Source: an uncultured Bdellovibrionales bacterium
Lineage (GTDB): Bacteria > Myxococcota > XYA12-FULL-58-9 > JALHOP01
Reading direction: 5' to 3'
Length of the DNA: 64,000 nucleotides
NCBI GenBank assembly: GCA_964484195.1
Contig: CAZAER010000013.1
Coordinates: 54,361-118,360, forward strand
Both the position numbers and the translations under genes were made by a program. Numbering within the stretch: the first letter of the stretch is position 1; each line of letters begins with the position of its first letter. The notes beneath the pieces are model-generated. The model saw only the letters and a list, made by a program, of their open reading frames with translations, was not told where the DNA came from and did no database searches. Positions 39,690 to 43,107 of this stretch are shown piece after piece.

Positions 39690-40262
39690 GTGGGCAAGCG
39701 TCGCGGCGACCCGTACGACCGACTAGAGGGTGACTTGGTGACGCTCGAGCGCGTCGACGACTTCGAGCGCTTATTCACCGACTTCCAACGCCCCGAGATT
39801 TACAGCCTCACCGGCATCAAGAAGCCACCGACGCGGGTCGACTTCGACGAAGACGTCAACACCGACCAATCTCTCATCGTTTGGGACGTGGTTCCCGAGG
39901 GCGAAAACGAGTCCATCGGCTACGCGATGTATGTCGCCTATGACGGTCCGCCATACTTCGCCTTCTTCATGATCTCCGGGAAGGTCGACCTCGACCTCGC
40001 GCAAGACGCCGCTCTGCTCATGGTGCACGCGTTCTTCAAGTTCACCGAAGAGGCACGTTTGCACACCTTCGTGCCCCAGCCCGTCGACGACGAGATCGAT
40101 GCACGCCTGGTGGAAGCCGGCTTCGACCGTATCGAAGAGCACCCCACGGTCGATCTCACCAAAGAAGGCGCCTACGTCATGGAGCGCCATACGTACGAGG
40201 CCTACTACGGCGACGAGAACGAAGACGACGAAGAGTCGGCCGAGCTCGATTTCGACGAGTAG
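39690..40262 (+). CDS. GNAT-like protein (RimJ/RimL/SpeG-like), divergent, acidic tail
   Basis: LEGDLVTLER start, ESIGYAMY, LAQDAALLMVHAFF, RLVEAGF; start inferred. Confidence 0.5.
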   Translation: MGKRRGDPYDRLEGDLVTLERVDDFERLFTDFQRPEIYSLTGIKKPPTRVDFDEDVNTDQSLIVWDVVPEGENESIGYAMYVAYDGPPYFAFFMISGKVDLDLAQDAALLMVHAFFKFTEEARLHTFVPQPVDDEIDARLVEAGFDRIEEHPTVDLTKEGAYVMERHTYEAYYGDENEDDEESAELDFDE

Positions 40263-40306
40263 GGTTTAGAGCCCTTTCGGCCGCCGATCGTGTACGTTCC
40301 CCAGCA

Positions 40307-40675
40307 ATGAACCTCTCGGTGGTCGTCGCCACGCTCGAAGGCTGTTCGTTCGAGCATCTGAACGATCCGGCACACATGCATCGTGTGCTCACCGACGCCG
40401 TGTCAGCCGGTAACTTCACCGAGTTGCACCGCCACCTGCACGTTTTCGAGCCTCAAGGGCTCACGGGCGCGGTCATCCTCTCCGAGTCGCACATTGCCAT
40501 TCACACCTGGCCCGAGAACGGCGTGATGTTCATCGACATCGCCTCGTGCTCCGGCGAGGTCGCGGCGCGCGCCGCTTTCGAGAGCATCTGCCGCAACGTC
40601 CCGCATGCGGTCATCAAGCGCGACAATCTGGCGTACGAGTGCCGCGATCAGAATCTGCGCACGCGCGTAGGCTGA
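40307..40675 (+). CDS. speD: S-adenosylmethionine decarboxylase proenzyme
   Basis: FEPQGLTGAVILSESHIAIHTWPE..IDIASC with intact ES cleavage site. Confidence 0.9.
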   Translation: MNLSVVVATLEGCSFEHLNDPAHMHRVLTDAVSAGNFTELHRHLHVFEPQGLTGAVILSESHIAIHTWPENGVMFIDIASCSGEVAARAAFESICRNVPHAVIKRDNLAYECRDQNLRTRVG

Positions 40676-40714
40676 TTGTTTGCACCGAGAATTCCTGCTT
40701 TCTACGACCCCACG

Positions 40715-41707
40715 ATGCACGACGTAGAGAACCTCGCGAAACGGCTCGCCACGCTCGACCGCATGTACAGCGGCTCGCTTCCCGGTTTCACGCAAGCGCA
40801 TGGCGAGCGCGTCGCAAACGTGCGGGGAGCACGGGCCCGCGACGGGATCCCGTTGGTGCTCGGTGAGCGCGCTACCTTGCCATCGTCGGTGGTCCGGCGC
40901 GCCGTCGCCATCGAAGCGCTACAGCCGAAGCGTGTCGTCCTCTTTGGCGACAGCGATGGTCTCGCGCCCCACCTATCGGGCGTGTCCGTCAAAGTGGTGC
41001 GCGCCGATGCGCCGCCGTCGAAAGAGGTCGTTGCCGACGTCTCGGTGTTCGAGGCCTCCGATCTCGCGCTCACCGCGGCTCGCCTCGAGTCCGCTTTAGC
41101 GGCAGTTGGCCCCGCCGGCACGGTCATCGCGCGTTTGCGTTGGCCGTTCGACCGCGGCTTTTACGAGCACGTGCGCGTCATGGGCGTGAAGGTCATCGGC
41201 TACCAACGCGAAGTCGATCACACGCTCTTTCCTGGCGGCCACGTGGCCGACGGTGCCGGCGACCTCGTGCTCTTGTCGGGCGCCATCGCCATCAGCGTTC
41301 CCGAGCTTCCCACGCCTCGCAGCGGCGAGCTGTCGCAGCTCTTGCCGGTGAGCGTCGATGCGCCGCCTTACGCTTGGTTCGACATGGACGGGATCGACTT
41401 GGCTCGCGGTGGCACCCTCGAGCGCTTCGCGGCCAGGGTCACGGAGATTTCCGGGCGTGCGCCGGAGCTCACGGACTTCAAGAGCTACGAGGACAAGCAC
41501 ATCCTCTGTTGGTACGACGACGAGGGTCGCGGCTTCGTTGCCGAGCTCAACCCCGAGCTCGGTCACTTGTTGGTGAGCTTCGTGCCCTACGACGACGCGC
41601 TCGATCACGCGACCATGACCGCTGCCTTCGAGCTCTTCGCCGATGATGACACTCGGGTCAGGCCGAGGCGCACCGAACGTACGCCTGAGCGGACGGTGTT
41701 CGCGTGA
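40715..41707 (+). CDS. Degenerate BpsA-like protein with C-terminal AdoMetDC-like region
   Basis: LPSSVVRRAV..VVLFGDSD parallels LPETAVRRAL..LCLGDDD of the next gene. Confidence 0.45.
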   Translation: MHDVENLAKRLATLDRMYSGSLPGFTQAHGERVANVRGARARDGIPLVLGERATLPSSVVRRAVAIEALQPKRVVLFGDSDGLAPHLSGVSVKVVRADAPPSKEVVADVSVFEASDLALTAARLESALAAVGPAGTVIARLRWPFDRGFYEHVRVMGVKVIGYQREVDHTLFPGGHVADGAGDLVLLSGAIAISVPELPTPRSGELSQLLPVSVDAPPYAWFDMDGIDLARGGTLERFAARVTEISGRAPELTDFKSYEDKHILCWYDDEGRGFVAELNPELGHLLVSFVPYDDALDHATMTAAFELFADDDTRVRPRRTERTPERTVFA

Positions 41708-43107
41708 ACACCTCACGTCTGGCGGTCCTCGAGTCGCTGCAGCTCGACAAGATCCCGCGCATTCCGCCGGCGCGGACTCCACCCGAGGGAGCGACGCAGC
41801 TCTATCACCTCGCCGACGGCATCATCTTGTCGATCGGTCCGACCAACTCGCGCCTCGTCGACCTCAACGGCGACGACGAGCTGACCGTCGATTTCCGCTA
41901 CGTGAACGCCCTCGAGCAGCTCGCTCTGGGCTGGGACATGAAAGGCGTCGAGCAGCTGGCGCCGAAGCTCGTGGCCGCTGGATTTCTCGCCGAGGGACCG
42001 CCGAAGTCGGATTCCGTTTTAGCGGGCGTCATCGGCGGGCTCGACGCGGTCGTGGGCCGTGAGCTGGCGATCGGTTGGTCGCCCCGCGTCAAAGCCGCTC
42101 ACGAAGCGACCCTGCGCGCACATGCGCGCCGCAAGCGCTTCTTCGAGCAGATTGGCCAGTGCCCGGTCCTCCCCGAGACCGCGGTGCGGCGCGCCCTGAC
42201 CGTCGGCGACGCTGCCGTCGTCGGCAAGAAGAAGGTCCTTTGCCTGGGCGATGACGATCTCGTCGCCATGCCCCTCGCCATGCTCGGCCACGAGGTCAGC
42301 GTCTTCGACATCGACGACTTCCTGCTGCGCTTTCTCGGCGACGCCGCGCGCGAGCAGGGCGTTTCGATCGAGGCGCGCGAGGTCGATCTCCGTGATCCGA
42401 TGCCACCCGAGCTCCTCGGTCAGTACGACGTGGTCCTCACCGACCCGATGGCGAACCGCGAGTGCTTCGAGCTCTTTCTCTCGCGTGCGATCTCGCTCTG
42501 CAAACCAGGCGGCCGTTTGCTCTCCGCGGTCTTCCCGCCGACCACCAAGCTGTTCAAGAAGGTGGCGAGCGAGCTCGGGCTACGCGTCGACGCCTGGCAC
42601 GCGCGGCACAACCGCTACTACACCCACGCAGCGAAGCTTCACTGGTACGAAAGCGACTGGGTGGAGCTGTCGCTCACCGAAACGACCAAGCCGACCGTTC
42701 TAGCGGATGCTTTTTCGGTGCCGCTCAATCTCTATCGCGAAGACTTCGCGCAGCGCCGCCCGAGCTTCATCGGCACCTTCGAGGACATCGGCGAGCTGCG
42801 GTTCGCCATGCCGTACTTCCTCGACCTCTTGGTCGATGTCGTCGAGAAGGCCGCGGACCTGACGCTGACTCACCGCATCGTTCATCCCGGGCTGAACGAT
42901 TGGAGCGTCGTCCACGGGACGACCGAGGACGGGCATCTGCTCTTGCACGTCGACCGGCGGCGCAAGGTGCTCAGCATCGAGCTCGTACCTTTCGTCCCCC
43001 AGGTCGAGGACGCCGTTCGTCACTTCGTCATGAACGTTTATAAGCCGAACCCGGCCGAAGCATCGGTCGTGACAAGTAACATCGTTTGGGAGCTGCGCGT
43101 TCGTTAG
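41704..43107 (+). CDS. Branched-chain polyamine synthase BpsA-like (DUF43) aminopropyltransferase with extra domains
   Basis: PETAVRRA, LCLGDDDL, VFDIDDFLL, DLRDPMP..YDVVLTDP..LFLSRA. Confidence 0.78.
   Translation: MNTSRLAVLESLQLDKIPRIPPARTPPEGATQLYHLADGIILSIGPTNSRLVDLNGDDELTVDFRYVNALEQLALGWDMKGVEQLAPKLVAAGFLAEGPPKSDSVLAGVIGGLDAVVGRELAIGWSPRVKAAHEATLRAHARRKRFFEQIGQCPVLPETAVRRALTVGDAAVVGKKKVLCLGDDDLVAMPLAMLGHEVSVFDIDDFLLRFLGDAAREQGVSIEAREVDLRDPMPPELLGQYDVVLTDPMANRECFELFLSRAISLCKPGGRLLSAVFPPTTKLFKKVASELGLRVDAWHARHNRYYTHAAKLHWYESDWVELSLTETTKPTVLADAFSVPLNLYREDFAQRRPSFIGTFEDIGELRFAMPYFLDLLVDVVEKAADLTLTHRIVHPGLNDWSVVHGTTEDGHLLLHVDRRRKVLSIELVPFVPQVEDAVRHFVMNVYKPNPAEASVVTSNIVWELRVR

Follow-up and report, generated by a model that had tools for sequence, protein, structure and literature searches.

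Among described systems, those closest to the genes considered here are the aminopropyltransferases of the BpsA type (EC 2.5.1.128; Pfam PF01861), represented in our comparisons by the enzymes of T. kodakarensis (PDB 5xnc) and T. thermophilus (6j27). According to a 2026 review, from which the residue roles used below were also taken, bpsA is restricted to thermophiles (PMC12979288). In a 64,000-nucleotide stretch of DNA from an uncultured bacterium (contig CAZAER010000013.1 of assembly GCA_964484195.1; hereafter the window), four genes termed A, B (speD), C and D (Table 1) combine a BpsA-like protein, D, with its degenerate paralog, C. By structural model for C and by profile for D, each of the two ends in a catalytically dead domain of the SpeD fold, and these domains are predicted to pair. 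Tentatively, D and C are read here as an aminopropyltransferase which, fed by SpeD, would lengthen a polyamine for use by a type III secretion system (T3SS).

Several further systems share individual traits with this pair. Human spermine synthase needs a dead S-adenosylmethionine decarboxylase (AdoMetDC) domain for dimer formation (PMC12803844). As in D, a dead AdoMetDC domain is fused to an aminopropyltransferase in animal spermine synthase and in its bacterial AdoMetDC-SpmSyn ancestors. Spermine synthase, a homodimer of the spermidine-synthase class, carries this domain at its N-terminus, whereas in D it is C-terminal, attached to an enzyme of the BpsA class and predicted to join an active and a dead subunit. 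By this comparison, the dead dimer domains of D/C and of spermine synthase probably arose independently. Dead partners are also described for trypanosomatids, where the AdoMetDC prozyme and a dead paralog of deoxyhypusine synthase (DHS) pair with the respective active enzyme (PMC10820115); activation has been shown for these eukaryotic AdoMetDC and DHS pairs, whereas C:D is a predicted pair built on a bacterial aminopropyltransferase. In SpeD1-degraded SpeD2 fusions and in eukaryotic class 2 AdoMetDC, the degraded half is kept structurally (PMC10407285). Its partner in those proteins is an active SpeD half, while the pairing predicted for C and D joins two dead halves, and active SpeD comes from a gene of its own.

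On the secretion side, needle assembly in Salmonella needs polyamines (PMC11299824), and the Salmonella translocator SipB is acylated in an IacP-dependent manner (PMC5279801). Like the gene for D, that for IacP is a metabolic-type gene linked to a translocon, and acyl carrier proteins (ACPs) occur in two of the loci related to ours; the chemistry of IacP is acyl, however, and that predicted for D aminopropyl. In the literature searched, no fusion of BpsA with a dead SpeD domain, no pseudo-BpsA and no T3SS-linked BpsA was found, although subscription papers and supplements were thinly covered and an earlier mention is possible.

A BpsA-type catalytic core

The initial annotation had called D BpsA-like and proposed the DUF43 (BpsA) hidden Markov model as a check. 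Against Pfam BpsA_C (PF01861), D scores 88.6 bits (cutoff 27), and in a sequence search of the PDB it matches T. kodakarensis BpsA with an E value of 3.4e-15. The AlphaFold model of D (predicted local distance difference test, pLDDT, 91.5) finds its best VIA fold match in the same protein (5xnc; Z 24.8, rmsd 2.5, 224 residues aligned, structural identity about 26%), compared with Z 19.9 for METTL5. The GDDD motif (Asp159/Asp160 in BpsA) is present in all 55 homologs aligned out of 73, to which the following counts refer; residues equivalent to Asp225, Tyr290 and Tyr316, which together with Glu259 are acceptor-activating in BpsA, occur in 54, 55 and 54 of them, respectively. Hence, D falls with BpsA, as had been proposed, and the clustering with methyltransferases that would have spoken against the initial reading is not seen. 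Judged from the conserved residues and from the changes described further below, the donor side of D, which would bind decarboxylated S-adenosylmethionine (dcSAM), looks intact, while its acceptor side looks rebuilt. The TDPM motif, which the initial annotation had noted in place of the usual TDPP, has methionine in 52 of 55 homologs and is, by this measure, a family trait and no sign of decay.

That D catalyzes aminopropyl chemistry of some kind is considered highly probable. It is improbable, by comparison, that D is a SAM-dependent methyltransferase, or else a housekeeping polyamine enzyme whose inherited gene order carries no meaning. The fold is common to methyltransferases of the METTL5/TrmN type, as the METTL5 match illustrates, and PADLOC gave a mad2 methyltransferase match (E 1.6e-11); the invariant GDDD, the adjoining SpeD in most loci and the SpeD-derived domains, on the other hand, point to dcSAM. 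The second half of this alternative is taken up with the distribution of the genes below. As a defence system D was rejected, the generic mad2 match being all that PADLOC gave, and a viral fold library likewise returned generic methyltransferases only.

Overall, D shares with BpsA the catalytic fold and the donor-side residues but differs from it in its N-terminal domain, in the additional dead SpeD-fold domain at its C-terminus and in having a probably dead paralog as predicted partner. The remnant of the acidic carrier cluster of BpsA is followed in D by a domain of 118 residues, so that it does not form a terminal lid, and the host does not look thermophilic: the IVYWREL index is 0.387 over 3369 open reading frames (ORFs), a composition proxy by which the host is probably mesophilic. 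By a conversion formula, this value would correspond to about 27 °C, again as a proxy only. D is therefore regarded as BpsA-like on the donor side but not as BpsA proper. In a tree of 41 catalytic cores, the 13 rows that lack a SpeD-like tail group together with support (98/92); the tree excluded the C proteins and one mis-framed row and contained no characterised BpsA, so that it does not place D relative to BpsA.

A probably dead partner and two dead SpeD-fold domains

C gave no sequence match in Pfam, NCBIfam or the PDB, and only 25 bits in a pairwise BLAST comparison with D. Its paralogy to D, claimed in the initial annotation, is nevertheless borne out by profile comparison (hhalign, 98.7% over 331 columns) and by its AlphaFold 2 model (pLDDT 87.4), for which 5xnc is the top fold match (VIA Z 15.0). 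C carries GDSD instead of GDDD. Since the commonest residues aligned with Asp159 across 20 homologs never include Asp, and since the DID and TDP motifs are absent, C is likely inactive as an enzyme.

The initial annotation had not recognized the C-terminal domains of both proteins. In the model of C, this domain matches AdoMetDC from Aquifex (2iii; VIA Z 10.3, rmsd 2.8, 101 residues aligned; Foldseek E 3.4e-4) and from Thermotoga (1vr7; VIA Z 10.2, rmsd 5.1, 106 residues aligned), with the ESH motif absent across the C family. In D, the tail was recognized by profile comparison with SpeD (hhalign 87%, E 3.9e-6), and the position of the pyruvoyl serine is occupied by glycine in 52 of 55 homologs. 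Compared over their whole lengths with the SpeD profile, D gave a weak result (9%) and C a negative one; the tail profile of D had no PDB, Pfam or Atlas match, and AdoMetDC did not appear among the matches listed when the entire model of D was searched, a list taken up by the larger domain.

A complex prediction for C and D scored 0.85, the best of three controls 0.00; of the solved complexes, 116 of 157 attain the mark applied, as do 2 of 215 mismatched pairs. At least 83% of contacts were shared between prediction runs, with partner pLDDT values of at least 84. In the predicted interface, the two SpeD-like sheets lie face to face, while the N-terminal helix and a conserved Arg-rich tail of C contact the catalytic domain of D. 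Independent support for the pairing comes from two natural C-D fusion proteins, P0055 (781 amino acids) and P0084 (840 amino acids). Moreover, wherever C was found, D followed it directly (18 of the 22 genomes that form our set for this uncultured Myxococcota order). The active/inactive heteromer suggested at the outset is thus supported by the prediction and by the fusions. Outside the order, D homologs end in a comparable tail, yet C did not turn up in those genomes, which suggests that a D homodimer became a C:D heterodimer by duplication.

SpeD and the polyamine metabolism of the host

B scores 89.8 bits against TIGR03330 (cutoff 75.65), and its residues E60, S61, H62 and C81 are invariant in eight of eight sequences. 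It is the only SpeD found (one PF02675 match) in the 95% complete genome that carries the window, G000. Although SpeD proteins neofunctionalised as arginine or ornithine decarboxylases are described (PMC10407285), canonical SpeA is present in G000 above cutoff, as is arginase, and the presence of SpeA argues against such a role for B. The context therefore favours decarboxylation of AdoMet rather than of arginine or ornithine. No soluble SpeE was found in G000; its two SpeE-like proteins are membrane-fused and score below the speE cutoff, which leaves D and a second D paralog as the evident users of dcSAM. As no soluble SpeE-type enzyme is evident, spermidine may not be the acceptor of D.

The second paralog, likewise missing from the initial annotation, is GDDD-intact and has a SpeD-like tail (G000:C3:91041-92315, within region L147:6917-10316 = G000:C3:88916-92315). 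Its gene points towards a tandem GNAT-like gene and an ORF of low complexity that looks secreted, a convergent arrangement kept in G001-G004, and neither C nor speD lies near the paralog. The secreted-looking label derives from sequence character, the ORF being without a family match. In a Chloroflexota record, speD immediately precedes the gene for a BpsA homolog that is full-length and more canonical (L103:9324-10774; E 6e-38 to 5xnc).

Linkage to the translocon cassette

The operon diverges, across 188 bp, from a leftward cassette that begins at 39501. Chaperone and SseC-/SseD-like genes (Table 1) identify this as a translocon cassette, confirming the divergent arrangement described initially. 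A non-flagellar T3SS is, from its gene content, present in G000: besides translocators and chaperone, the genome encodes a non-flagellar SctV (TIGR01399, 852 versus 692), a T3SS ATPase (603.1, just under the cutoff of 604.75) and, on contig C21, FliP/Q/R/FlhB-family export gate and YscO-like genes. For the needle subunit SctF, no PF09392 match above cutoff was obtained.

Within the order, D occurs in 19 genomes, C in 18 (with a remnant in G016), A in 21 and SctV-like proteins in 21. In 13 of the 19 genomes with D (G000, G001, G003, G004, G005, G008, G009, G010, G013, G014, G015, G018 and G021), D is separated by no more than about 10 kb from T1, the first cassette gene, or from the chaperone on the same contig, and the link to the translocon noted for the window is thus kept within the order. 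This tally was made by hand from coordinates, and the genomes are kin, so that the counts are not independent; in G002, G019 and G020 contig breaks leave the distance undecided. A sample of 301 genomes of the phylum contained D in 24, of which 16 belong to the order.

The same kinship favours a mere inheritance of gene order, as do a lexA gene and an arsA pair that travel with the locus and the lack of T3SS enrichment outside the order. Against this, the link outlasts several rearrangements, operon and cassette being divergent in G000, convergent in G004 and arranged downstream on the same strand in G013.

More distant BpsA-like proteins that lack the SpeD tail are encoded by Paenibacillus, Brevibacillus and Bacillus (L075-L129), so that mesophily of the host does not by itself make a BpsA homolog unusual. 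These proteins have GDDD and a C-terminal CxxC...CxxC zinc-ribbon-like domain and constitute a separate, mostly mesophilic clade; no adjoining speD was seen in the few loci read.

Protein A and a possible acyl branch

The first gene of the operon, A, had been labelled a SpeG-like GNAT. This label could not be upheld: A matches nothing in Pfam, NCBIfam or the PDB, the assignment to the GNAT fold derives from language-model features only (ESM Atlas, 0.96 to a RimJ/RimL cluster, ten of ten family matches to the same family or clan), and nothing beyond the fold ties A to SpeG. The acetyl-CoA-binding glycine motif is not visible in 17 aligned A orthologs, although it is in the unrelated GNAT of L039. 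A, which is rich in acidic residues (25% D+E), is an order-specific companion of the translocon cassette. Its acidic tail was also considered as an in-trans aminopropyl carrier; this idea is weakened by the tail occurring in G006 and G012, which lack C and D, and being absent from G010 and G016, which have D.

Several genes around D homologs would suit a decorated product, with D attaching the aminopropyl group to a polyamine or lipid, which a GNAT-fold protein would acylate from a dedicated ACP. At L027:2976-9002 and L028:7169-7411, a double ketosynthase, an ACP, a second GNAT-like gene, a metallo-hydrolase and an APH-like kinase were noted inside the G018 locus, and an ACP next to D in G008; an APH-like kinase is also found inside the G015 locus, and GNAT-fold genes recur beside D homologs. 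Ketosynthase and ACP are missing from most loci, however, and in G000 the pair lies on another contig (C21, the contig of the T3SS core genes), while A has no recognisable CoA motif. The use of ACPs by GNAT folds is, moreover, our assumption. An acylated product appears quite improbable.

Proposed function and alternatives

In the preferred polyamine reading, B would make dcSAM, from which D would transfer the aminopropyl group by BpsA-type chemistry, as expected from the respective families, with C serving in the predicted heterodimer as scaffold or activator. The acceptor would be a polyamine of an arginine decarboxylase/deoxyhypusine-synthase-like route (agmatine- or homospermidine-type) rather than spermidine, the product would probably differ from the N4-bis(aminopropyl)spermidine of thermophiles, and, judging from synteny, it may be used in needle or translocon assembly or function.

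A number of observations weigh against this scheme. On the acceptor side, the Glu259 equivalent is T, V or A in D homologs and E in one of 55, albeit in a gappy stretch of the alignment; the Asp of the BpsA FDQ motif is replaced by Gly in 54 of 55; and the five-acid carrier cluster of BpsA aligns to N-L-Y-R-E-D-F in D, with two of five acids kept. With these changes, the product of D need not be the branched polyamine of thermophiles, and the lost acceptor-side and carrier acids also fit a non-polyamine acceptor. The C:D prediction used self-built alignments, and its high score may stem from likeness to solved AdoMetDC dimers. The DHS-like and agmatinase-like proteins of G000 score below NCBIfam cutoffs. 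speD is absent from the locus in G008, G013, G015, G016 and G021, and none was found anywhere in G013. D and C lie apart from the cassette in G011, G016 and G017, and the cassette occurs without detectable C or D in G006 (95% complete) and G012 (84%). Outside the order, finally, SctV was found in three of five D carriers and in 15 of 34 non-carriers. A general dependence of D on T3SS was therefore rejected, and the T3SS link appears specific to the order.

Loss of the acceptor-side acids would also fit D:C being a protein aminopropyltransferase that acts on a lysine or acidic residue of a secreted T3SS substrate, either T1 or a translocator, with A as adaptor or chaperone. BpsA itself attaches aminopropyl groups to Glu/Asp residues of its own as a reaction intermediate (PMC12979288), and the acylation of SipB is a precedent for modification of a translocon protein by a linked gene. 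The neighbours of the second paralog in G000-G004 fit such a role as well, as does G031, where a D homolog has speD in its vicinity together with a gene matching T1 at its C-terminus. On the other side, a protein acceptor for the BpsA family was not found described in the literature searched, the secreted-looking ORF is without a family match, and the acidic tail of A, like the cassette, is also present in the two genomes without C and D. For the N-terminal domain of D, a comparison with a RiPP (ribosomally synthesized and post-translationally modified peptide) recognition element pointed clearly in neither direction: it gave an hhalign probability of 17% and a score of 20, against 17.2 for the best of 40 shuffles, out of register, and the model shows two helices where a PqqD-like element has three strands and three helices. 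A protein acceptor is considered rather unlikely, although it is the main rival to the polyamine reading. It is likewise rather doubtful that, across the order, an enzyme and pseudoenzyme of BpsA descent, clamped by their dead SpeD domains, aminopropylate translocon or needle-like substrates. The lengthening of a polyamine by D:C accordingly stays the working reading, held with reserve.

Organisation of the locus and neighbouring genes

The features of the locus are collected in Table 1. The ORFs and motifs of the initial annotation (GDDD, TDPM, GDSD, speD upstream) were all recovered. Among C homologs, a length of 330 amino acids is found in four of ten. In the window, the start of D overlaps the stop of C by 4 nt. 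A search for sigma-70 promoters found none, and three terminator-like sites correspond to chance level. The host has its close relatives among uncultured records, most of which carry the label Myxococcota or Deltaproteobacteria.

Table 1 Features of the operon and the divergent cassette (window coordinates)
Feature	Position	Strand	Description	Evidence or detail
ORF A	39690-40262	+	RimJ/RimL-like GNAT fold (putative), acidic C-terminal tail	ESM Atlas features; GTG start, frame open from TTG 39654
speD (B)	40307-40675	+	Putative SpeD class 1b pyruvoyl AdoMet decarboxylase, SESH intact	TIGR03330; SESH self-cleavage motif 40481-40492
ORF C	40715-41707	+	Pseudo-BpsA with C-terminal dead SpeD-fold domain (by model)	hhalign, AlphaFold 2, VIA; ATG start; GDSD 40946-40957
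C residues 213-318	41351-41668	+	AdoMetDC-fold domain without pyruvoyl serine, predicted dimer surface	VIA, Foldseek
ORF D	41704-43107	+	Candidate aminopropyltransferase: GDDD-bearing BpsA_C core between a small beta/alpha N-domain and a dead SpeD-fold domain (by profile) at the C-terminus	GDDD 42247-42258; TDPM 42439-42450
D residues 142-348	42127-42747	+	BpsA catalytic core including LYRED remnant of acidic carrier cluster	VIA against 5xnc; profile alignment through acidic cluster
D residues 350-467	42751-43104	+	SpeD-like domain, predicted dimer surface	hhalign, conservation
T1	38314-39501	-	First gene of divergent cassette, probable secreted T3SS substrate	Highly conserved C-terminal helix
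Tandem SycD/LcrH	37105-38238	-	Translocator chaperone	TIGR02552, 122.7 bits (cutoff 104.8)
SseC-like	35494-36978	-	Hydrophobic translocator	PF04888, 36.6 bits (cutoff 30.2)
SseC-like paralog	33801-35369	-	Second translocator, similar to first	PF04888, E 3.4e-4, below cutoff
SseD-like	32723-33766	-	Translocator	NF052420, E 1.1e-5, below cutoff

Directly after D lies a gene for a small lipoprotein with a CxxCH heme motif (43086-43478), which other members of the genus also have, whereas in other families it is not a neighbour of D. In G005, speD and C are separated by an opposite-strand ORF that by eye resembles a Ser/Thr kinase (L022:7089-8624).

T1 gave a weak PrgJ match (E 0.047). A likeness to needle or tip proteins was not confirmed, with no meaningful PDB match and no needle-family match. 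Its C-terminal helix is shared with the gene next to D in G031 (L035:10384-11646; hhalign 60%, E 8.8e-5, 28 columns), and another ORF in the T3SS core cluster (L156:6266-7441) has a weak needle-family match at its C-terminus (E 0.045). ORFs of the T1 type may be enlarged needle or rod-like subunits. The T3SS genes of G000 are scattered over contigs C2, C13, C21, C33, C42 and C1, apart from a separate flagellar cluster; the genome has at least five SycD-like chaperones and, on C16, an extra SseD-like gene.

Beyond the translocators, the reverse strand of the window (28650-32659) encodes an unannotated ORF of 721 amino acids and two more of 373 and 235, the 373-amino-acid one with a weak match to DMATS prenyltransferases (E 2e-5), which makes a prenylation step beside the translocon possible; the 721-amino-acid gene is kept at the same place in relatives. 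Further on (23953-27499), lexA and a BagA/BagB-like pair of ArsA/Get3 ATPase genes flank the cassette in G000, G008 and G018.

Implications

The review cited above confines bpsA to thermophiles, whereas D and its homologs form a conserved, BpsA-derived clade of rebuilt architecture in an apparently mesophilic order. D and C would repeat the dead AdoMetDC dimer domain of spermine synthase on a different transferase, adding to it a dead partner of the trypanosome type. Should the acceptor be a protein, this would be a post-translational modification not found described in the literature searched. In either case, the linkage to translocon genes may offer a handle on the role of polyamines, or of amine modification, in T3SS assembly.

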